Positions 3,951-44,261 are shown, numbered from the stretch's first letter. The stretch is 64,000 bases of DNA from a virus (IMGVR_UViG_2654587772_000002), one strand, 5' to 3'. Numbers and translations: made by a program. Notes: generated by a model not told the origin, from the letters alone.

Positions 3951-5049
3951 GAACGTCATTAGTCACCCGTGAAGAGATGATCGAGGCAATTGAACAGCAC
4001 ACTGCCTGTATCAGTACCAGGGATATACCGGGCGTTATTGCCAACTACTTCATGATCACCAAACAACTTTACCGGAGAAAGGACAAATACGCGGTTCACC
4101 GCATTCTGCTAACCGATATCCGTGAATACCTGCTCGAACAGGGTCATCTGAATTACGCAACCGTCGCAGCCGAAGCACGCAAGGAGGCACACAGAATGAA
4201 AGCAACTAACGTTAAATCAGAAAAAATTTATGCACCTTCAGTTCAGGAATCGGAACTGGTGGTTGTTCAGAATCAGCCGGATGAAATTCCCGTTCTGGAA
4301 TGGCAGGGAGTACGTGTCGTGACAACCGAAACTCTTGCTAGAGGGTATGGTGTCGATGAAGCCAATATTCGCAACAATTTGTCTCGCAACCTTGACCGCT
4401 TTGAAGAAGGTAAGCATTACTTTCTTCTAACTGGTTTAAAATTAAGAGAATTTAAGAACAGAGTAACCGGAAGTTACTCTGTTGGTAAGAACGCCAGAAG
4501 CCTTACACTCTGGACAGAGCGCGGCGCTGCACGCATGTCTAAGATCGTGGACACAAATGAAGCATGGGCATTCTTTGAAAAACTGGAAGACAGCTACTTC
4601 CGGCAAAAAGAACAGCAACCGGTTGCAATCCCCCAGACGCTTCCAGAAGCTCTGCGCCTGGCTGCCGAACTGGCTGAACAAAAGAACAGAAAGCCCACCA
4701 GCTAAATCAGCAGCTGGTGGCCGCCGCTCCTAAAGTCGATTTTGCCGACCGGGTATCAGTAGCTAAAGGGATCCTGATTGGGAATTTTGCAAAGGTTGTT
4801 GGACTTAAGCAAAACGCGCTGTTTGCCTGGTTACGGGAGAACGGCATCCTGATAGCGTCCGGTGGACGTAAAAATGTGCCGTTCCAGCAGTACATCAATG
4901 CGGGGTATTTCACGGTGAAAGAAGTGGTGCTGGATGATGAAGATGGCTACCAGATACGGTTGACGCCTCAATTAACGGGTAAAGGCCAGCAGTGGTTGAC
5001 GCGTAAACTGCTCGATGCTGGCTTGTTAAAACCGGTGGCGGCTGAATAA
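3947..5049 (+). pseudogene. Antirepressor Ant-like gene (ORF6N-type N-domain + KilAC-type C-domain) split into two ORFs (3947-4705 and 4717-5049) by a frameshift near 4678-4705
   Basis: Domain-like motifs recognised in translation (VRVVTTETLARGYGVDEANI...; PKVDFADRVSVAKGILIGNFAKVVG...); frame 1 is open from 4678 and continues the reading sense of the upstream ORF. Confidence 0.5.
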
Positions 5050-5933: not shown

Positions 5934-6043
5934 TGATCCTCCTCCAGAATTGACATGGTCAATAACGCCCGGCTGAGAAAACCGGTCATTACTGACCTAT
6001 ATTATAGAGGGATCAAACAAAAATAATAGATTTATTAGTGCAT

Positions 6044-6253
6044 TTATTGTGAGTCCAACTGGTTAGTTGCCATGAGATATTCGATTGTGTCAGTGAGGTC
6101 ATCCAGGTCGTCTTGGGTGATGCGGTACTCCTGATTGGATATCTTTGAGTAGTGTTCAGCAATGGCGCGGGCAGCGTCGGTTTCGGCAGGGTCTACAGAT
6201 AAAGCGTTAGAGCAATGTCTAACGTCGTCGATGGTTGGTTGAATGAAAGCCAT
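6044..6253 (-). CDS. coi: C1 inactivator Coi (69 aa)
   Basis: 69-aa ORF upstream of c1 in same orientation, operator sites upstream. Confidence 0.8.
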   Translation of the reverse strand: MAFIQPTIDDVRHCSNALSVDPAETDAARAIAEHYSKISNQEYRITQDDLDDLTDTIEYLMATNQLDSQ

Positions 6254-6492
6254 AATTATGCCTCACTGTATTGACAACACAGAGCCTGAAGCTCTGACCT
6301 ACTGTTTCACCCATGATCCATGCTGGGGTAATCTAACAACATTGCGCTGTGTGTAAGATGAGCAATGCATAGCTGTAATGCCGTTGTATAAGGTTTCCCT
6401 GTTTGCTCATTTCCTTCTGAGCCGCTCTACAACGCTGAAGACACATTAAATAGTGAATCCAAAGTCGTATTACGAAACGGCGGCAAAACTAT

Positions 6493-6509
6493 AATTTATT
6501 AGAGCAATT
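6493..6509 (-). promoter_or_regulatory. C1 operator (reverse complement ATTGCTCTAATAAATTA) in coi-c1 promoter region
   Basis: 16/17 consensus match on minus strand. Confidence 0.6.
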
Positions 6510-6574
6510 GTCAAACAACTATGAAAAACAATCCAGTTTTTGGCTGGTGGAGTGGGATTTTTCTCTCAAAATTT

Positions 6575-6590
6575 ATTGCTCTAATAATTC
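6575..6590 (+). promoter_or_regulatory. C1 operator (ATTGCTCTAATAATTC) in coi-c1 promoter region
   Basis: Consensus match read in sequence. Confidence 0.6.
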
Positions 6591-6634
6591 TTGATTTTTA
6601 TGCGCAGCTGGACGTAAACTCCTCTTCAGACCTA

Positions 6635-6668
6635 ATAACTTCGTATAGCATACATTATACGAAGTTAT
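6635..6668. other. loxP: loxP site-specific recombination site (ATAACTTCGTATA-GCATACAT-TATACGAAGTTAT)
   Basis: Exact 34-bp loxP sequence present. Confidence 0.98.
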
Positions 6669-6857
6669 ATTAAGGGTTATTGAATATGATCAATTTACCT
6701 GTAAATCCATACAGTTCAATACCTTGGCAGGTCAAATAGTGATCACTTGATCATTTGATCAAGGTTGCGCTACGTAAAATCTGTGAAAAATTGGCGGTGT
6801 TAGTCCTACAGATTTCGCGTAGCGCACTTAGCACCACCAATCAATCAGAGGTGAAAA

Positions 6858-7079
6858 ATGGGATATTCAACTGCTAAAGTGTCCACTCATCTTGAGCTTG
6901 AGAAAAACCGTGGTTACTGGCGGGCAAAAGGGTTTGATCGTGATAGTTGCCAACTGTCATTATCGCGCGGTGAAGAAAAAATAGAACGCACGCGCGGTCG
7001 CTGGCGTTTCTATGACGAGAACCATAAACAGGTAAAGGCAGAGCCGATCCTGTACACTTTACTTAAAACCATTATCTGA
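6858..7079 (+). CDS. Hypothetical small protein (73 aa) between loxP and cre
   Basis: ORF with SD GAGGTG 7 nt upstream of ATG; no recognisable domain. Confidence 0.3.
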   Translation: MGYSTAKVSTHLELEKNRGYWRAKGFDRDSCQLSLSRGEEKIERTRGRWRFYDENHKQVKAEPILYTLLKTII

Positions 7080-7086
7080 GTGTTAA

Positions 7087-8118
7087 ATGTCCAATTTACT
7101 GACCGTACACCAAAATTTGCCTGCATTACCGGTCGATGCAACGAGTGATGAGGTTCGCAAGAATCTGATGGACATGTTCAGGGATCGCCAGGCGTTTTCT
7201 GAGCATACTTGGAAAATGCTTCTGTCCGTTTGCCGGTCGTGGGCGGCATGGTGCAAGTTGAATAACCGGAAGTGGTTTCCCGCAGAACCTGAAGATGTTC
7301 GCGATTATCTTCTATATCTTCAGGCGCGCGGTCTGGCAGTGAAAACTATCCAGCAACATTTGGGCCAGCTAAATATGCTTCATCGTCGGTCCGGGCTGCC
7401 ACGACCAAGTGACAGCAATGCTGTTTCACTGGTCATGCGACGGATCCGAAAAGAAAACGTTGATGCCGGTGAGCGTGCAAAACAGGCGCTGGCGTTCGAA
7501 CGCACTGATTTCGACCAGGTTCGTTCACTCATGGAAAATAGCGATCGCTGCCAGGATATACGTAATCTGGCATTTCTGGGGATTGCTTATAACACCCTGT
7601 TACGTATAGCCGAAATTTCCAGGATCAGAGTTAAAGATATCTCACGTACTGACGGTGGGAGAATGTTAATCCATATTGGCAGAACGAAAACGCTGGTTAG
7701 CACCGCTGGTGTAGAGAAGGCACTTAGTCTGGGGGTAACTAAACTGGTTGAGCGATGGATTTCTGTCTCTGGTGTGGCTGATGATCCGAATAACTACTTG
7801 TTTTGCCGTGTCAGAAAAAATGGTGTTGCCGCGCCATCTGCCACCAGCCAGCTATCAACTCGCGCCCTGGAAGGGATTTTTGAAGCAACTCACCGATTGA
7901 TTTACGGGGCTAAGGATGACTCTGGCCAGAGGTACCTGGCCTGGTCTGGACACAGTGCCCGTGTCGGAGCCGCGCGAGATATGGCCCGCGCCGGAGTTTC
8001 AATACCGGAGATCATGCAAGCTGGTGGCTGGACCAACGTAAATATTGTCATGAACTATATCCGTAACCTGGATAGTGAAACAGGGGCAATGGTGCGCCTG
8101 CTGGAAGATGGCGATTAG
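7087..8118 (+). CDS. cre: Cre tyrosine recombinase (343 aa)
   Basis: Translation begins MSNLLTVHQNLPALPVDATSDEVRKNLMDMFRDRQAFSEHTWKMLLSVCRSWAAWCKLNNRKWFPAEPEDVRDYLLYLQARGLAVKTIQQHLGQLNMLHRRSGLPRPSDSNAVSLVMRRIRKENVDAGERAKQALAFERTDFDQVRSLMENSDRCQDIRNLAFLGIAYNTLLRIAEISRIRVKDISRTDGGRMLIHIGRTKTLVSTAGVEKALSLGVTKLVERWISVSGVADDPNNYLFCRVRKNGVAAPSATSQLSTRALEGIFEATHRLIYGAKDDSGQRYLAWSGHSARVGAARDMARAGVSIPEIMQAGGWTNVNIVMNYIRNLDSETGAMVRLLEDGD, i.e. Cre; loxP ~420 bp upstream. Confidence 0.98.
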   Translation: MSNLLTVHQNLPALPVDATSDEVRKNLMDMFRDRQAFSEHTWKMLLSVCRSWAAWCKLNNRKWFPAEPEDVRDYLLYLQARGLAVKTIQQHLGQLNMLHRRSGLPRPSDSNAVSLVMRRIRKENVDAGERAKQALAFERTDFDQVRSLMENSDRCQDIRNLAFLGIAYNTLLRIAEISRIRVKDISRTDGGRMLIHIGRTKTLVSTAGVEKALSLGVTKLVERWISVSGVADDPNNYLFCRVRKNGVAAPSATSQLSTRALEGIFEATHRLIYGAKDDSGQRYLAWSGHSARVGAARDMARAGVSIPEIMQAGGWTNVNIVMNYIRNLDSETGAMVRLLEDGD

Positions 8119-35929: not shown

Positions 35930-36350
35930 CCTGTGCGAGATTTATTACGTAACTTCTGCGGATTTGCTGAGTAACAGGGAAAATCCGATACAACGGGTTA
36001 ATGAACGAGTCGCCATGCGTAACCATGACGTTGAAATGCCACAGTCGCTCTCCTTTACCCATATATTCAGTGGGTATGTACAACCATTCACTGTTTTCGC
36101 CCTGTTCAGCCGACGTCAGACAACGTTGTTCGCCTTCAATCACTGTCGTCGGCTTCTGAACATCGCGGATCCAATATCTGACCGTTGCGCCGCGCAAAAA
36201 CGGGAATTTAGACCGGTATTTGAACGGCACCCGAATGAAACCCGGTTTAATTTCCACATCACCAAGTTCTAAATGCGTGATGTCCTTGCGTTTTAGCAAA
36301 TAGCGATCGGCTAAGGCTAACGCAAGAACGCATACACCCCAGCCAATCAT
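35907..36350 (-). CDS. lydB: LydB-like antiholin (147 aa)
   Basis: Coupled downstream of holin gene. Confidence 0.55.
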   Translation of the reverse strand: MIGWGVCVLALALADRYLLKRKDITHLELGDVEIKPGFIRVPFKYRSKFPFLRGATVRYWIRDVQKPTTVIEGEQRCLTSAEQGENSEWLYIPTEYMGKGERLWHFNVMVTHGDSFINPLYRIFPVTQQIRRSYVINLAQDVSDDEK

Positions 36351-36676
36351 TTCCCACCTCCCTTTTTCACCAAACTTGTAAGAACATTCAGAATGCTATC
36401 GATATTCACTCGTTTCATCCCTGAAATCACCTCATGACCGTTATTGCTGGCTATCGTTACCATTAAGTACGTAATTGATAACTCCCAGCCTTCGTGTTGC
36501 CCCAATAGGTACGCCACCGCGCCAGCTGTCACTGCAACAAAGATCTCCGTAACCAATCCCAACAAGTTGCCAGACTGGCGACCATCTCGGACATCCATCA
36601 GGAACGTGCCTATCCCACCAATTACTGAAAGCAGGAGCGCAATAGCAACTGGAGCTAATTCCTGTGTGTCAAGCAC
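36347..36676 (-). CDS. lydA: LydA-like holin (109 aa)
   Basis: Multiple TM segments in 109-aa protein, SD GAGGGA upstream. Confidence 0.65.
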   Translation of the reverse strand: MLDTQELAPVAIALLLSVIGGIGTFLMDVRDGRQSGNLLGLVTEIFVAVTAGAVAYLLGQHEGWELSITYLMVTIASNNGHEVISGMKRVNIDSILNVLTSLVKKGGGK

Positions 36677-36778
36677 AAGTTCCCTCCTACGTTGTCAGGA
36701 GGTAATGGTATGCAAAGTAACTTCTCAACCGGTCATGTTACTTGACATCCTCCACGTCCTTTAGAGCGTGGAGGATGT

Positions 36779-37600
36779 GTGCGCCCAGCATGGGCGCGAT
36801 CTTGGAGGTGAAAGCCCTCCCGCGAGCTGACCACAGCGAGCGAAAGGAAGTGCAACTGCGTGAGGGCGGCTAGGCGTGGGGAGGAAGCACGGAATGAACC
36901 CGTGAGCCGATGAACAAGAATCGGATATGAGGCGCGATGGAGCAAGGCGAGCAGGCACATCACTGCGAAGCTTTCGTGACAAAGTCGCGTAGATCCGACG
37001 GTTGTGCGGGGAAGGATCGCGTTCTTACCTGGGGAGTTCTCGCCTCATGCCTGAAAGGGCAACGTCGTAAGACGGAGCGAGAAGTCAGCAGAGGCCGTAG
37101 TAGTCAGGACTCCGACGAAGGGCCGAACGAGAAGGAAAGCCAAAAGATATGACTCTTGACAGGACATTGCGTCAGAAGCCGGGGAAGCCCGGTACGGACC
37201 CGCATGCCGGGTGGTGTGGCAGGGGCGCAGCCTTGTGCTCCCCCCTATGCCGATCAAGCAGAACATTGTGCTGGGCCTCTGACGCATCTCCTTGATGGTC
37301 TTGGCATCGTGCTTAAGTGGATTGGTGTCGTCTCTGATAGGCTCATGGAGGCAGAATGAAACTCAAAAATCCGGGACAGCACGCAAAACAGGCTGCACAA
37401 AAAGCGCAGGTTGCGTAGGAGTGGAATCCCGCTCCCAAAAAATGGTGCAGAAGTTGCGGCAGTGGTCATCCGACGCACTGGAAAATAACAAACCCGCCGT
37501 GACCAGAATCGGAGGCCTGAGGGAGTGACCGTAAAACCGGATAACCCAGGCAGCAAATACCCGCTGGATGAGGCATGGTTCCGGCAGATAATACCGAAAA
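36779..37600 (+). ncRNA. GC-rich non-coding block with group II intron-like 5' end (GTGCGCCCAG), preceded by a perfect hairpin (36746-36777); possibly ORF-less or degenerate intron or other large structured RNA
   Basis: No credible ORF on either strand across ~0.9 kb; 5' end resembles the Ll.LtrB intron start as I recall it; many GNRA-type tetraloop motifs; 3' boundary and domain V not identified. Confidence 0.3.
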
Positions 37601-37674
37601 CCGCCAGACACACTGGATAATCAGTAGAAATAACCCATTAAAATCATTATAATAATTGGGCACATTATTATATT

Positions 37675-38238
37675 ATGCTGAATAATAGAGACATGAATAT
37701 TAATGAACTTAAAGACTGTATTCACTATGAAGTAATCGGTAGCGAGCGTCCTTTCTCCTGGCGAAAGGCAATTGTTCGCGCAATAAAACATAGAAGAGTT
37801 CGTTATTTATTTTGGTGGCGCATAGCCAAATACCTTTTTGATAAAGGCGGATACTGTCGGAAGATTGCGGGGAAAATGGAACGTTTCATTCTTGATAAAT
37901 ATAGTGTAACAGTCCCTTTAACTGTAAATATAGGGAAAGGCTTTGATATTTCTTATCTCAACGGTGTTGTTATCGGTCACAAAGTAACCATTGGTGAAAA
38001 TTGTTCAATAAAACCAGGGGTAACTATTGGGCTACGTGGTGATTTTAATGATATGGATATTGTTATAGGACATAATGTGACCATTGGTTGTAATGCCACC
38101 ATTCTTGGTGGCAAAGTGCGTATAGGAAACAATGTCACAATAGGTGCTCATGCATTGGTATTGCATGATATTCCTGATGATTCAACATTCATCACTAAAT
38201 TTCAGTCTGAAGTTATCTGCTCGTCCTCTTGCACATAA
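37675..38238 (+). CDS. Hexapeptide-repeat (left-handed beta-helix) O-acetyltransferase, CysE/WbbJ-like (187 aa)
   Basis: Tandem hexapeptide repeats ([21 protein letters not shown]...[32 protein letters not shown]); AT-rich. Confidence 0.7.
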
Positions 38239-38819
38239 CCCTGATTCATCAGCTCTGGCCATACGATATCCGGAGCTGTACTGGTGTCAATTCGACTCAC
38301 TAATACTCTGTATTTTCTCCAGGAATCCAGTTGTGAATTTTCCTCGGTTGTTGCTATTTCAAGATTAACTGCATCCTGCAGAATTGCGATGTTATCTGTT
38401 GCCTCCTGAATCAACCTTGCCTTTTTCTCTTCCGCTTCCCGTATCCGAAACAGTTTTTCTGCTTCCTCATCCTTCACCCAGGATACGCCGTCCCACTTCT
38501 GATACTCCCCTGCTGGCGACAACCAGGTGACATTCTCTGGTAACGGTCCGAGTTCAGAAATAAACAACGCGTCCCCCGATGCCACGTCATAGACCGTTTT
38601 ACCACGATGGTCTTCAACAATAATCCATGATTCATTTTCACTGTTAAAAACTGCCACAAAGCCAGCAGGAATTTCCGGTGGGGCGATATCTGTAGAATTA
38701 GCTGGTAGCCCTGTATGAGGTGGAATATATGCGTCACCTTCACCAATAAACTCATTAGTTCCGGCGAGCAGGTTATAAATTTTTACAGTACGTGATTGTT
38801 CACTCATTCTGAATGCCAT
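38202..38819 (-). CDS. Tail fibre assembly chaperone (Tfa/U-like), 205 aa
   Basis: N-terminus MAFRMSEQ...[42 protein letters not shown] matches the lambda/E. coli Tfa family. Confidence 0.85.
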
Positions 38820-39709
38820 TATGCAAGCCTCACAATATAATTAAATGCGATGTTTTTAACGGTGTTTTCCGAGTTACCAGCAGCGTTAACGGTGATGGTG
38901 TGTCCATGTGAACCAATCGCAACAGAGTGCGTATGAGCGCCAATATCAACTGTATGTGCATGCGCCCCTGCACTTGCAGCGGTGCCTGATACTGAGTGGG
39001 TGTGTGCACCAGAAGAAGGCACAGTTCCATTCCCCACCACAGTGCCGCTTGATGAGCCATCAAGCCAGTCGAAATTCATACCGCCACCATCTGGTCTCCT
39101 TAATGGAACGGTATGAGTATGTGCGCCAGCACTATTTGCAGTACCAGATACATTGTGGGTATGTGCACCTGTGTTATTCGTTGATTTAGTACCGTAATCA
39201 AACGAAGATGTGGTTTTCGTACCCAAATCCGTATTGGATGCGCTGGCGCTGTGGGTGTGCGATTTAATGCCATCCTGTTCCAGAGACAATACGTCCCGAC
39301 CACTGGCGGGTTTGCCCTTGATTGTCCAGCCACGCATATCCGGGATCACGCCTGACGGATAAGCGGCTGCAAGTTTCGGGTATGCAGATTTGTCAAAAGT
39401 CTGTCCCTGCATCAGGGCGTAACCAGACGGCACAGTATCTGATGGCCACGGATGCGGAACACCAACAGGAAGGACCTCAATATCCCCGGAACCATCAAAC
39501 GAAACGTTATTAATTTTACGGGCTGTTTTCAGCTTTGTAGCCGTTGAGGCATTGCCGGACAGCTCACCAGAAATGCCACCAACAACTGTTAGATCACCAG
39601 TTATTGTGCCGCCTGAACTTTCCAGTTTTTTAGCAACATCACTCTTAATAGAGTCGATTTCTTTTTTCAGATTAGTTATATCTGCTGGTATCGTTGTCAC
39701 TGTTGCCAT
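38819..39709 (-). CDS. Distal tail fibre / receptor-binding protein with HxH repeats (296 aa)
   Basis: Repeated GAHTHxV and SGAHTH motifs typical of fibre tips; coupled to tfa. Confidence 0.7.
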
Positions 39710-39718
39710 ATTAATTCC

Positions 39719-39997
39719 TTACGCCCATTCCCGCAGCGGTTGTTCTAATTGAACTTCAAAACCATCAAACATTTGTTGTTTCAAACTGTTGTTTAAAATA
39801 CGAACATTAACGAAGAAGCCATCATTTTTAATCACTGTTGGTTCTTCGTTCTCGCCGTTTGGTATTTCGGTATATGTAACACCTACAACATCAAGAAGAA
39901 TGTTGTTTTGCAGCTCTTCATTATCGTGCCAGGATATACTCTCTAAAAAAGAGTCGTATTCTGCCCTGTCTCTGAATTTCAACGTGATATCTTTCAT
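39719..39997 (-). CDS. Small protein (92 aa) coupled to S, possible fibre chaperone
   Basis: ATG overlaps S stop (TAATG). Confidence 0.35.
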   Translation of the reverse strand: MKDITLKFRDRAEYDSFLESISWHDNEELQNNILLDVVGVTYTEIPNGENEEPTVIKNDGFFVNVRILNNSLKQQMFDGFEVQLEQPLREWA

Positions 39998-42897
39998 TAA
40001 ATAACCTCAGCCATTTGTTGGTCTGTTAATGCTTTATGCCATATTCTGAAATTTCTGATATGACCAAATAAATGACGTAACCCTGCTGTAGTCTGGCCTC
40101 CAATACGGATGGTTGCAGAGTTCTGAATATAGGACCATGTCGTCTTTGTTTCGCTGGATATGCGCCCGTTACTTACTGAGCACGTAGACTGATCTGATTT
40201 TACACGCATCCCCATAACCATTTTTTCAAGCAATGCGTTTTCGTTTACCCGTCTGTTAGCTCCTCCAATATCGCAATAAGGAAATCCGTCGTAATCTGCT
40301 GAAGAACCGAAGCCAAGAATAATAGCCGCTCCGGTTTGATGACCGCCGGTATCAAAAACACGTGGCGCTGCATTTGGCGTTTTATACCAGTTCTTATGTA
40401 CCTCACAAAGAACCGTAAAAGGAAGATTATAAAGATTATTATTAATTGGAACTGTAACTATATCGCTTGCGCGGGTAGCCGCCGTCGTTCCCGAGATAAT
40501 AAAAGATGATGCACACGAACCATCCTCAACCTGAGGGGTGGACAGATAAATATAGTCTCCAGATATGGTTGCTCCGCCCTGCTTAGGAGAATACTGTATC
40601 TGAGATCCTATTTTTAACTCATCATCAATTGCCTGGATTGTTGCCTCTGCAAAAATCCATCCGGTAGCTTCGTCCTTTCTGACTCTCGCTGTAATCCTTG
40701 AGGCCGCGCCACCTGTCATATTAATTTCAAGCGTTTGTGTATCAATATATGCATCACCAAGAAAAGTTGTTGCACTACCGTCATATTTATCAAAGCGGAT
40801 ACGTAACCTTACCTGTCGTTCTGTTTTAAAACGACATGAGGTTGTCACGTACTTGTTATCGCCTGAAACATCAACTGACTTTGTAGCAGCAATTGATGCC
40901 ATATTAATGGCTGACGTTTGCCCAATCAGAGAATCGTTACAGACAAACTTTCCATAGGTAAAACCAAAACTATCCGTCCCGGTTTCGGGAACATCCATAT
41001 TTGACGAGCGCCCCCAACTGGCAGGGTTTTCCGAATTGAGCATGTAGTTTGTTCGTTGTCCCTCAATAAGCAGACCATCACGTTCAAATCGTGGCTCGTC
41101 AATGGCAGCCTCTGTCAGCACACCAGATTTATTTATATAGGTTGCTTTCGATGCGCGTTTAAACTTAACAACCTTGTCGCCAGGCATTGTTATTTCGTCG
41201 TCGCCAATAACAATCTTTTTATATGATGGAGAAAAGCCCGCAATCATATCCAGCGAATCGTTAAACGGTATCCACACATCTGGCAGCGGTTGAATAATCT
41301 TCCTGGCATCCTCCAGTGACAATGCTTCGACATCCGAAGCTGTTAAAGAAATATCTGCCGAACCGTCAAATGAAACGTTGTTAATCATCCGTGCTGTTTT
41401 TAATTTCGTTGCGGTGTCGGCGTTCCCCATCAGTGCGCCGGTGATCCCGCCGTTGAAAGTCTGGCGTGCACTCCATGTGTTAGCCGTGCTCAACAGGGGG
41501 ATCTTTTCACCGCTTGTGCCGAGTTCTCTTAAACCAAGGTATTGGATAACAGCAAGGACGCTTGTTTTGGACAGAATATCGCGACCGACTGACGTTAAGT
41601 CAGTCTGAGAAACAGTGTCTGTACCGGTAAAGTACGGCAGTTTATTTGCGCCTGTAGCAAGACCAGCAAGCGCGGTTAAAGTTGCATCCAGAGGCTGTTT
41701 GCCTGCCAGCGCATTTGTCATTGTTGTCGCAAAGTTCGGGTCATTACCAAGTGCTGCGGCAAGCTCATTCAGGGTATCAAGAGCTTCTGGTGATGAACCA
41801 ACCAATGCGGATATGGCAGCTCTTACATAAGCAGTCGTAGCAATCTGCGTATTATTTGTGCCCTGCGCAGCCGTAGGCGCAGTAGGGACTCCCGTTAATG
41901 CAGGGCTTGCCAAAGGCGCTTTGAGGGCTAGGGCATTGTTGATAGTTGTGCTGAAATTCGGGTCGTTATTGATCGCAGCAGCTATTTCTTTAAGCGTATC
42001 CAGTGTGCCAGGTGCACCGTTGATAAGTGCCGTTATAGCTGACTTAACAAAGGCTGTATTTGCGATCTGCGTGCTATTTGTACCTTGCGCTGCCGTCGGC
42101 GCGGTTGGCGTTCCTGTCAGACTCGGGCTTTCTATTGGCGCTTTGGTATCAGCAAGACCTTTTACAGACTTAACGGCTTTAGGGGTAGCCGCCATTGTTT
42201 CGCTGTCGCTGTTAGTTTCGCTACTGAGCTGAACTAATCCCTTTTGCGTTGTGCTTGCATCCTGTGCCGTATACTTGCTTTTCGCCAGATCGTAGGCTTT
42301 TTTAGCTGCCAGCGAACTTGCAGCAACATCACTTCTGCTACTGGTTACAGAGTCTGAAATATCAATGCCGATCGTGCGGTTAATACGCTCGGATGTATCA
42401 ATCATCTCCTGGGTAATGGCTGATACGCCAGCAGGGATATTCACCGTACAAACAAGCAGCTCTCCATCTCCTAACTGATATGAATCGGTATAGGTTCTGG
42501 CAACAAATTCAGCCGCATGAATATGTGACGCGGTATTAACCTGATAGGTATCCTCTCCAAGGAGGTATCTTCCCTTCAGCACAATTGCATATTTCTTGCC
42601 TTCACTAAGTGCAAGAGAAATATCCTTACGGTGCCGAATAGTTACCTGGTAGAATTCACCAATATCCACTGACGCAGCGCCAGCAGTTTTATCACCATCC
42701 ACTGAGGTGATTAACAGGTTCATACCACCGCCAGGCTTCGGCAGGAAACCGGCATAAAACCCAGGATCAACAATTCCCCTGAATTTTCGGTTTAGCGCGG
42801 CTGACAGATATGGTTCGTGGTATTGCACATCAGCCACCAGAGCCAGTGACTCGGGCGATGGGTAAGTAACTGATGTAACAACTGTAACGTCATTCAT
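39997..42897 (-). CDS. Tail fibre protein S-like (start taken at MNDVTVVTSVTYP; ORF track extends to 42984)
   Basis: Tandem ~50-aa repeats (…APTAAQGTN.TQIA.TA.V…LDTL.E.AAA..NDPNF.TT…) typical of P1/Mu/lambda side tail fibres. Confidence 0.75.
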   Translation of the reverse strand: MNDVTVVTSVTYPSPESLALVADVQYHEPYLSAALNRKFRGIVDPGFYAGFLPKPGGGMNLLITSVDGDKTAGAASVDIGEFYQVTIRHRKDISLALSEGKKYAIVLKGRYLLGEDTYQVNTASHIHAAEFVARTYTDSYQLGDGELLVCTVNIPAGVSAITQEMIDTSERINRTIGIDISDSVTSSRSDVAASSLAAKKAYDLAKSKYTAQDASTTQKGLVQLSSETNSDSETMAATPKAVKSVKGLADTKAPIESPSLTGTPTAPTAAQGTNSTQIANTAFVKSAITALINGAPGTLDTLKEIAAAINNDPNFSTTINNALALKAPLASPALTGVPTAPTAAQGTNNTQIATTAYVRAAISALVGSSPEALDTLNELAAALGNDPNFATTMTNALAGKQPLDATLTALAGLATGANKLPYFTGTDTVSQTDLTSVGRDILSKTSVLAVIQYLGLRELGTSGEKIPLLSTANTWSARQTFNGGITGALMGNADTATKLKTARMINNVSFDGSADISLTASDVEALSLEDARKIIQPLPDVWIPFNDSLDMIAGFSPSYKKIVIGDDEITMPGDKVVKFKRASKATYINKSGVLTEAAIDEPRFERDGLLIEGQRTNYMLNSENPASWGRSSNMDVPETGTDSFGFTYGKFVCNDSLIGQTSAINMASIAATKSVDVSGDNKYVTTSCRFKTERQVRLRIRFDKYDGSATTFLGDAYIDTQTLEINMTGGAASRITARVRKDEATGWIFAEATIQAIDDELKIGSQIQYSPKQGGATISGDYIYLSTPQVEDGSCASSFIISGTTAATRASDIVTVPINNNLYNLPFTVLCEVHKNWYKTPNAAPRVFDTGGHQTGAAIILGFGSSADYDGFPYCDIGGANRRVNENALLEKMVMGMRVKSDQSTCSVSNGRISSETKTTWSYIQNSATIRIGGQTTAGLRHLFGHIRNFRIWHKALTDQQMAEVI

Positions 42898-42908
42898 CAA
42901 GCATATCC

Positions 42909-43343
42909 TTATGCTATAGTCGTGTTGATGGCCATAACTGCGGTATATGTTTTTCCCACATACAGCGAGTCTTCCTGAACACAAATAATTGCGATGGGCT
43001 TATTCTCGTTATCCAGAACAACCAGAGTGTTGAATGGATAGTTTTTCCCTTCCTGCAACTGGCTTTGATCAAGGTCCATTCGGACAGTAATTATCCCGCC
43101 AGAGTAGGTTGGGACGAGGTTGATGGTGCAAAATTGACTGGTCAGTTCTGCCAACTCGAAAGTCTTTGGCAGTTCTCCAATGTCATAAGTACCATCTTCA
43201 TTTTTGGTAACCAGCGAACTGGTGCCGAAAACGGCCTTGCTGATTAAAAATCGAGAGCCTTTGTTAATGGACGATTCAGCGCGTCGCTGATAGTAATAAT
43301 CCAACAACTGACTCTTATAGAGATTTGTTGAGACGTCAGACAT
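42909..43343 (-). CDS. Tail fibre-associated structural protein R-like (144 aa)
   Basis: Position upstream of S. Confidence 0.45.
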   Translation of the reverse strand: MSDVSTNLYKSQLLDYYYQRRAESSINKGSRFLISKAVFGTSSLVTKNEDGTYDIGELPKTFELAELTSQFCTINLVPTYSGGIITVRMDLDQSQLQEGKNYPFNTLVVLDNENKPIAIICVQEDSLYVGKTYTAVMAINTTIA

Positions 43344-43421
43344 GATTTTCCCTAATCAATGTTGTGAAGCCTCATTGTAAGAGAAGTAACTTGTCACCCC
43401 GCCCTGCGGACGGGGTAATTG

Positions 43422-44261
43422 TCAGGCATCGCTATCCAGCAGCAAATCATCTGCGCGGGAGCGATCAAACGTAGGCGTTGCTTTCACAATAGTGCCGCCC
43501 GGCGTTGCAGTGATCGGGGCACTAATCGACGTAACTCCGGCAAGCGAAGTTGTATCCGAAGTTTCAAACCAGCAGTACGCTTTTTCGGTATCAGAAATCT
43601 CGTTCAAAGTGATCATGTCGGCCTGTTCATTTACAACAACCGACAAATAGAGCGTAAGCCCATCAAACACTATATGCAGTGGCAGTAGAGGCTTTACGAA
43701 CTGATTAAACTTTCTGAGAATTTCTTCTGTAATTGCGGACTGATCTATCGTGCCAGTAATACCCATTGTCCTGGCCAGGTCGTTTATGGGAATACTGATC
43801 ATCCCTCTGGAAGTCAGAAACATCTCGCCGAATGTGCCGCCAGTAGTCTCCAGTGTGCTTTCTGGTATTAGAACTGTGCCATAGGGATGACGCTCAAGGT
43901 CCACCGGTGCATATATCGGATCCCATAAAACAGAAATACCGTTAAATTCGCGGTAAATTGTCTGGTTTATAGGACGTTCAGTTCCCTTAAAGTGGATCTC
44001 ATCAAGCCGCTGTTGTAACAACATCGGAACGGAAGATGAGTTCGAGGTTCTGATAGTAAAGAACTGGCCAAGTTCATTTGTCCTGGTCTCCAGATCCTCC
44101 TTGCTCATGGAGAAAATAGACTTCCGGTTGGTAATTCGCTCCAACCATGGGTCAACAAAGGTGTCCATCATTGACTGAACCAAATCAGCCAATGATTTAT
44201 AGAGCAATGACTTTTGCTTAGCTGATGTAAGCCGGTTATTAAACCAGGAACGCTGCATCAC
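43422..44261 (-). CDS. Baseplate protein (P1 gp16-like), 279 aa
   Basis: Synteny; coupled to following baseplate gene. Confidence 0.45.
   Translation of the reverse strand: MMQRSWFNNRLTSAKQKSLLYKSLADLVQSMMDTFVDPWLERITNRKSIFSMSKEDLETRTNELGQFFTIRTSNSSSVPMLLQQRLDEIHFKGTERPINQTIYREFNGISVLWDPIYAPVDLERHPYGTVLIPESTLETTGGTFGEMFLTSRGMISIPINDLARTMGITGTIDQSAITEEILRKFNQFVKPLLPLHIVFDGLTLYLSVVVNEQADMITLNEISDTEKAYCWFETSDTTSLAGVTSISAPITATPGGTIVKATPTFDRSRADDLLLDSDA

Follow-up and report, generated by a model that had tools for sequence, protein, structure and literature searches.

A serine acetyltransferase-like gene with a substituted catalytic dyad in a tail-fibre cassette of a P1-like phage-plasmid

Introduction

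Prophage CUS-3 encodes NeuO, a left-handed beta-helix (LbH) O-acetyltransferase of the polysialic acid capsule (PMC3046976), and prophage acetyltransferases have been associated with K-loci and capsule types in Klebsiella (PMC13123978). In the P1-like phage JL22, a 'serine acetyltransferase' in the tail fibre region has been remarked on as present for an unknown reason (PMC9603915), and this remark was the only return of our literature searches for a characterised fibre-adjacent acetyltransferase resembling serine acetyltransferase (SAT). Here we analyse an acetyltransferase-like gene that lies beside the tail fibre genes in a 64-kb stretch of viral DNA, IMGVR_UViG_2654587772_000002. This stretch, at its whole length, is referred to as the window; it is a P1-like phage-plasmid, and all coordinates are counted on it. 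Annotations for this class of gene exist and the literature has commented on it, so it is not a new kind of element. What our analysis adds beyond the annotation is the structure of the cassette in which the gene lies, its relation to the P1 C segment and, above all, a His-to-Tyr and Asp-to-Thr variant of the active site that is kept under purifying selection.

The active site of the N. gonorrhoeae SAT comprises D96, D161, H162, D147, E170, R196 and H197, in which His162 and Asp147 make up the catalytic dyad; the corresponding residues in E. coli are D92, D157, H158, D143, E166, R192 and H193 (PMC8786284). The catalytic His has been described as common to the crystallised LbH members (PMC3046976, PMC8786284).

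Results

The maximal open reading frame (ORF) of the gene occupies positions 37675-38238 on the + strand and encodes 187 aa; residue numbers (Tyr94 and so on) are counted on this ORF. The true start is probably the second in-frame ATG at 37693, giving a gene of 37693-38238 and a product of 181 aa. This is the start chosen by PGAP/RefSeq, and an equivalent Met opens diverged homologues. The protein matched Pfam Hexapep (PF00132) with 48.2 bits, where 27 is the cut-off (E 6.6e-13), and, over its full length, phrog_2154, a family of phage proteins of unknown function (E 3e-79; residues 5-184 against positions 2-182 of a 185-position profile). The GC content of the ORF is 37.5% (29% at third codon positions) against 48.5% for the window, within the lowest 4% or so of equal-sized windows. 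The gene converges on tfa, which encodes a tail-fibre assembly chaperone recognised by Caudo_TAP, and 37 nt (38202-38238) are common to both 3' ends, with the final 12 codons of each gene antisense to those of the other. The original prediction, made from this DNA, had described a hexapeptide-repeat ORF in an AT-rich setting whose 3' end overlaps that of the fibre chaperone gene, and our results agree with it on each of these points. It had also named housekeeping SATs as closest homologues, together with inactivating lesions, as grounds for giving up its reading; the ORF proved to be intact and the nearest relatives phage-borne.

HMM and structure-based classification, which had been suggested as the check on this gene, gave a SAT-like result and did not support a xenobiotic acetyltransferase (XAT) of the Vat/CatB type. 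An AlphaFold2 model (pLDDT 91.8) placed four N-terminal helices (residues 9-76) ahead of a left-handed beta-helix. The best 50 fold matches to the Protein Data Bank (PDB) by Foldseek were all LbH SATs, with TM scores of about 0.7 and no XAT structure among them, and the best PDB sequence matches were also SATs (E 1e-12); NeuO was not among the best 60 of 73 PDB sequence matches. The BFVD library of viral folds gave no useful match (best TM 0.39). The protein fell under every curated equivalog cut-off of NCBIfam, where its best matches were EpsC (85.5 bits against a cut-off of 150), CysE (TIGR01172, 74.2 against 210.65; NF008349, 46.1 against 397) and WcaB (TIGR04016, 59.4 against 194.65). WbbJ (NF007240) was matched at 39 bits against 243, over residues 127-171 only, and Vat and CatB at 24-27 bits against cut-offs of 300-475. 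On the modelled structure, the assignment to a short, four-helix CysE/SAT-like fold, and not to the xenobiotic or WbbJ type, can be taken as settled. The 'CysE/WbbJ-type' label given earlier therefore holds for the CysE-like fold and falls for WbbJ. A truncated four-helix isoform of CysE exists (PMC13040420), and the window protein matches its architecture. The product is soluble and presumably trimeric.

We mapped the SAT active site onto the window protein with HMMER alignments to three SAT structures, with the numbering checked. All six of the mapped positions differ. Both members of the catalytic dyad of E. coli CysE are replaced, H158 by Tyr94 and D143 by Thr79, as are D157 (S93), E166 (H102), R192 (M127) and H193 (D128). 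In an alignment of 83 family members the catalytic column contained His in 76 sequences and Tyr in 7, and all of the latter belonged to the clade of the window protein (53-99% identity). The next clade out (46-50% identity) has His at this position and Asp at that of its partner. An exhaustive HMMER search of 1.84 billion representatives returned four sequences at E<=1e-30. Of 18 near-invariant residues of the family, 16 are identical in the window protein and one is conservatively replaced; only the position of residue 94, otherwise His, is radically changed. Most members of the Tyr clade carry His102 at an active-site position, that of CysE E166. The scaffold, with its acetyl-CoA-binding coils and donor groove, is thus conserved, and the acceptor and catalytic pocket has been rebuilt throughout.

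Within the clade, dN/dS was 0.02-0.12, and 0.02-0.09 at a dS of about 0.13; dN stayed at 0.2-0.45 even with synonymous sites saturated. As judged from these substitution rates, the clade is under strong purifying selection and its product is a working protein. Since the dyad and the serine-binding residues are replaced, ordinary acetyltransferase chemistry is not to be assumed for it. On the same residue evidence, the database name 'serine acetyltransferase' appears to be wrong or at best nominal, and the protein is unlikely to be an enzyme of the cysteine pathway.

The gene stands at the outer end of a mobile cassette of approximately 2 kb (37605-39580) that comprises a promoter-like site, the acetyltransferase gene, tfa and a C-terminal fibre tip, and that shares 93-96% nt identity with unrelated temperate myophages. 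Homology to three further types of temperate phage has its left boundary at exactly 37605 and its right boundary between 39471 and 39580; this level of identity is reached by P2-like prophages, by pSCU-204-5, a 47-kb phage-plasmid, and by phage vB_EcoM-613R2. The share of the fibre in the cassette is its last 220-255 codons or so. The promoter-like site, TAGAAA-17-TATAAT (37625-37653, + strand), was found by a consensus scan at 10 of 12 matches and is a consensus match only. It lies 22 nt 5' of the first ATG, within the cassette, and is kept in the P2-like and 47-kb plasmid copies, where the -10 element reads TACAAT. The acetyltransferase gene is on the strand opposite to the late fibre operon. 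No tandem repeat or phase-variation tract was found within 37550-38350, which covers the gene and its upstream region.

Of 5426 complete E. coli genomes, 183 carried the acetyltransferase gene; its places were chromosomal in 157 cases and on plasmids in 58. Among the 40 places listed, 38 adjoin tfa and the remaining two are deleted copies. The truncating deletion of one copy (L013) also takes out tfa. In P2-like prophages the gene sits between the tail operon (gpT-gpU) and tfa. Taken together, these comparisons show that the acetyltransferase gene, a defined fibre tip and its chaperone travel as one unit. This cassette recombines among P1-like phage-plasmids, P2-like prophages and 47-kb phage-plasmids.

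Relatives of the gene recur at comparable sites. In JL22 the corresponding site holds SacF, a 37%-identical relative that converges on tfa. Further tfa-convergent relatives, 54% and 39% identical, are those of Hafnia phage yong2 and Citrobacter phage phiNP, respectively. The 37-nt overlap is not kept in these three phages, which have gaps of 15-43 nt instead. The fibre tips of JL22 and phiNP are 66-69% identical, and their Tfa proteins 53-78% identical, to those of the window, whereas the acetyltransferases share just 37-39%; the link of this enzyme family with modules of the Stf/Tfa type is therefore old or has been formed repeatedly. Further relatives were found in the S. thermophilus 987-group phages (31% identity), after the last, distal structural gene, and in the P2-like ESSI2 phages, at the prophage ends beside int. 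Distant, His-bearing homologues (31-35% identity) lay within polysaccharide-synthesis loci, with Wzx, glycosyltransferases and NeuB, in all three cases sampled. In a non-phage island on the chromosome of Enterobacteriaceae bacterium BIT-l23 (6001-7697 of the compared stretch) we observed three hexapeptide-repeat paralogues in tandem, the first of which is a 52%-identical, His-bearing relative.

JL22 bears on the relation of the gene to the inversion machinery of P1. It keeps lydC, cin, Sv', U' and two inverted cix sites (2327-2350 and 7767-7790 of the compared JL22 stretch). Its sacF, which is of the His type, is central in the invertible segment, between two convergent chaperone genes, and therefore flips with it. 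Since a relative is present within an intact, cin-equipped C segment, the acetyltransferase is no replacement for cin. We accordingly rejected the idea, which the placement of the gene 'where P1 would carry cin' had invited, that it stands in for the invertase; it belongs to the cassette of tip, Tfa and acetyltransferase.

The window itself follows P1 on either side of the fibre locus. Homology at 97% spans ddrB-ddrA-darA-hdf-lydB-lydA and the LPdar region and stops at 36736; the holin gene lydA with the LPdar promoter region (36347-36736, - strand; 97.4% nt identity to P1 up to 36736, by P1 annotation) is the last P1-backbone sequence. Within S, from 41393 on, homology is present again and extends over R and gene 16 and further. 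The lydC-cin-cixL-Sv'-U'-U-Sv block of P1 has therefore been replaced by window 36737-41392. A tblastn search with P1 Cin found no homologue in the 64 kb (best E 0.7), and one with P1 LydC gave noise only in the window, apart from the match of LydC to its paralogue LydA. A single cix site, an exact match to P1 cixR, lies in S (41524-41547, + strand). No second site was present in the 64 kb at up to three mismatches, at a chance expectation of 0, and inverted or direct repeats over 36500-43500 were limited to short chance pairs. Because cin is absent and cixR is a single orphan, the fibre locus is fixed and non-invertible, and both the missing cin-type invertase and the fixed fibre region had been foreseen in the original prediction. 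An invertase provided in trans would find no partner for this cixR. In the closest complete plasmid checked, the mcr-1-bearing P1-like plasmid pSCEC128, 100 of 101 kb were examined and contained no Cin homologue; the 50-kb half with its fibre locus carries one cix.

The fibre locus encodes two receptor-binding tips in tandem on one strand (38819-42984), first S with a 92-aa ORF and then a 296-aa tip with Tfa. Tail fibre S (39997-42984, - strand; 995 aa; phrog_1419, E 8e-235) consists of a P1-type constant part, with P1 homology from 41393, followed by a lambdoid lateral-fibre tip that is 93.7% nt identical to those of phages HannyBb, Tritos and 2G7b. The 92-aa ORF downstream of S (39719-39997, - strand) belongs to phrog_1361 (E 1.6e-35), had no Pfam or PADLOC match, and is possibly the chaperone of the S tip. 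The 296-aa protein (38819-39709, - strand) is a stand-alone tip similar to lambda Stf and T4 gp37 (Pfam Collar and Phage_fiber; phrog_295, E 1e-129), with a Collar domain, His-x-His repeats and an AAGGA ribosome-binding site of its own. Phage phiNP has a 282-aa stand-alone homologue of this tip, and in pSCEC128 the constant part of S (Sc) is fused directly to the same tip in one protein of 1181 aa. The tfa gene (38202-38819, - strand) encodes 205 aa (Caudo_TAP, E 2.3e-39) and is 85-87% nt identical to tfa of lambda and lambdoid phages. An Rfam IS009 match at 38278-38476 (- strand) scored 79 bits against a gathering score of 117, lies within the coding sequence of tfa and was not taken as a real small RNA.

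A copy of the locus that is 99.97-100% identical over the compared span (window 36500-43500) was seen in an E. coli ST2747 'chromosome' record, NZ_CP007393.1. This copy has a 1587-bp deletion, relative to window 39929-41515, at a GTGCC microhomology, which destroys S and leaves the 92-aa ORF joined to sequence 8 bp away from cixR. The P1-like element came to be within this chromosome record through integration or assembly.

The stretch between lydA and the acetyltransferase gene contains no gene, only relics. The first is a 5' fragment of approximately 360 nt of a group II intron (36778-37136, + strand), identified by Rfam RF02001 (95.5 bits, 36860-37024) and RF01998 (46.8 bits, 37042-37123). 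It lies immediately past the end of P1 homology and is 76-80% nt identical, over that span only, to introns carried by plasmids of Sinorhizobium, Ralstonia and Leclercia. Pieces of domains I to IV were present; we found no D5 or D6, no intron-encoded protein or reverse-transcriptase ORF, and no long ORF in the fragment. The same relic was seen in about 30 complete E. coli genomes. The second is what remains, decayed and frameshifted, of part of a P2-like tail tape-measure gene (37273-37635, + strand); by tblastx it is colinear with positions 4016-4396 of a compared sequence (L030), inside an annotated tape-measure gene. This fragment directly abuts the acetyltransferase cassette and, as the gene follows gpT-gpU in P2-like prophages, suggests a P2-like phage as the source from which the P1-like lineage acquired the cassette. 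The simplest history is that the left arm of the invertible segment was lost, with relics in its place, leaving the acetyltransferase gene beside lydA.

Discussion

We have high confidence in the identity of the gene and in the anatomy of the cassette. Its function is a more tentative matter. We read the gene as an accessory gene of the prophage (a 'moron') that has no part in the P1 inversion machinery. We propose that its product is an envelope-glycan acetyltransferase with a remodelled active site, expressed in the lysogen; we put the probability of this function at roughly 35-40%. The promoter-like site of its own, the opposite strand, the low GC content and the lasting linkage to a tip indicate an envelope-glycan modifier of this kind, and the polysaccharide loci of the distant homologues suggest that the wider family is best read as sugar O-acetyltransferases of glycan assembly. 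Under this proposal the gene would be transcribed in the lysogen from its own promoter, and its product would acetylate, on the cytoplasmic side, a precursor sugar of an envelope glycan (lipopolysaccharide, O-unit, enterobacterial common antigen, colanic acid or capsule). The surface would thereby be changed for phages with the linked type of tip, resulting in lysogenic conversion, superinfection exclusion or the shielding of progeny from readsorption. Catalysis would then have to rely on a base other than the canonical one (Tyr94, or H102 together with D128), or do without one. A putative role in modifying surface polysaccharide so as to exclude superinfection, as first proposed for this gene, is the best-supported guess.

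Several observations weigh against this proposal. Of 132 aligned representatives, 125 have His in the catalytic column, and Tyr is confined to the clade of the window protein, in which the His158/Asp143 dyad has given way to Tyr94/Thr79. No His is kept across the whole of the Tyr clade that could serve in its stead, as residue 102 is Leu or Arg in yong2, P0014 and P0013. Some copies are truncated or, on chromosomes, split by IS1 (E. coli genomes H73, H74 and H99), and the gene is therefore dispensable for the prophage. Hosts are of varied serotype by strain name (O121, O103), which makes an O-antigen-specific acceptor less likely. The linked tip is here split from S as the 296-aa ORF and may go unused, and the linkage itself could be hitch-hiking at a recombination hot spot. 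Transcription in the lysogen is read solely from the consensus match to a promoter.

The missing dyad also allows for bolder readings of the protein. It might represent a new catalytic solution for acyl transfer on the LbH fold, for example a base formed by His102/Asp128 of the neighbouring subunit or a base-independent N-acetylation of an amino sugar, or it might be a non-enzymatic factor of acetyltransferase descent that masks receptors or blocks a host enzyme; we regard this as somewhat unlikely. A pseudoenzyme is a related and, in our view, improbable explanation. The Tyr clade would then carry out no acetyl transfer and would act by binding a nucleotide-sugar, acetyl-CoA or a host protein, or by poisoning a host LbH trimer. 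The loss of both dyad members and of all mapped acceptor-binding residues, within a clade as narrow as this one, is what such a protein would show, and the purifying selection would mean that it is still used; non-catalytic LbH proteins are known, such as the LbH domain of eIF2B epsilon, to which the window protein has a weak Pfam match (LbH_EIF2B). However, the remaining near-invariant residues are kept, among them the C-terminal coils lining the groove for acetyl-CoA, His102 holds its active-site position in most of the clade, and the gene context points to no binding partner.

An anti-phage defence or counter-defence factor, acting on a protein, nucleotide, small molecule or other non-glycan target from a variable spot close to the fibre genes, has low probability. 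The position between gpT-gpU and tfa in P2-like prophages is a variable slot beside the P2 fibre genes, the hot spots of P2-like phages have been described as rich in defence systems (PMC9122126), and relatives of the gene also occur beside int at prophage ends and beside a HicAB toxin-antitoxin pair. However, none of the PADLOC-DB 2.0 defence families matched the acetyltransferase at E<=0.01, the gene stands alone with no partner, and the wider family is found in the context of polysaccharide synthesis. The word acetyltransferase does not occur in the three papers on P2 hot spots and on the selection of defence systems in E. coli that were among the matches listed.

A genuine serine O-acetyltransferase, serving as an auxiliary metabolic gene that boosts cysteine synthesis, has in its favour the GenBank/RefSeq name, the closest solved structures by sequence and fold and the existence of short four-helix CysE isoforms (PMC13040420), and was rejected as very improbable on the CysE scores and the six altered active-site positions, with a C-terminus (...SSSCT) that has no SAT tail. 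Equally remote is an antibiotic or other xenobiotic acetyltransferase (Vat/CatB/XAT) or a small-sugar enzyme of the Maa/LacA type: resistance genes are frequent on P1-like plasmids (PMC9600943) and Vat, CatB, Maa and LacA give weak NCBIfam matches over one or two hexapeptide coils, but these reach 24-31 bits against cut-offs of 300-475, all of the best 50 folds are SATs, and the N-terminal four-helix domain is specific to SATs.

Hundreds of E. coli prophages, as well as P1-like plasmids that include pSCEC128 and other carriers of mcr-1, have this gene under the annotation 'serine acetyltransferase'. The misleading name, the movement as a unit with tip and chaperone and the non-canonical active site lead to a testable hypothesis, namely prophage-driven modification or masking of the receptor for that type of fibre. 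If true, it would matter for predicting host range, for how serotype and antigens vary among E. coli lysogens and for the range of catalysis open to beta-helix acyltransferases; if false, the gene would be an ordinary moron.

CysE, including its truncated isoform (structures 6WYE, 4N69 and 1T3D), shares the N-terminal helical domain followed by the left-handed beta-helix and provides the best sequence and fold matches, whereas the window protein lies far below the CysE cut-offs, ends without the SAT C-terminal tail and is encoded by an AT-rich, phage-borne gene. The short SAT-like enzymes of the WcaB (colanic acid) and EpsC type, of about 160-190 aa, share its size and architecture; their catalytic His is retained, mostly together with an acidic partner, but the clade of the window protein has Tyr and Thr, and the window gene lies at fibre genes, not in a glycan locus. 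NeuO, like the window protein, is a soluble, prophage-encoded LbH protein, and it modifies the surface polysaccharide of the lysogen. However, NeuO has the catalytic His and a phase-variable 5' heptanucleotide repeat, and the window gene has neither a tandem repeat nor a His at the canonical position.

The P1 C segment shares with the window the slot between lydA and R and the constant part of S with a perfect cixR. A Cin-type invertible segment has a serine invertase and two inverted cix sites flanking the Sv/U sets, and the window has neither the invertase nor the paired sites: it lacks cin, lydC, cixL and the inverted Sv'/U' set, and carries two different tips in tandem on one strand. The fibre-adjacent 'serine acetyltransferases' (JL22 SacF, phiNP Sat, and those of yong2 and the ESSI2-type P2-like phages) are of the same family and have the same placement by tfa beyond the fibre genes. 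Among them SacF and Sat, at 37-39% identity, keep the catalytic His, whereas yong2 has the Tyr variant, and JL22 differs further in keeping cin and both cix sites, with its gene inside the invertible segment.

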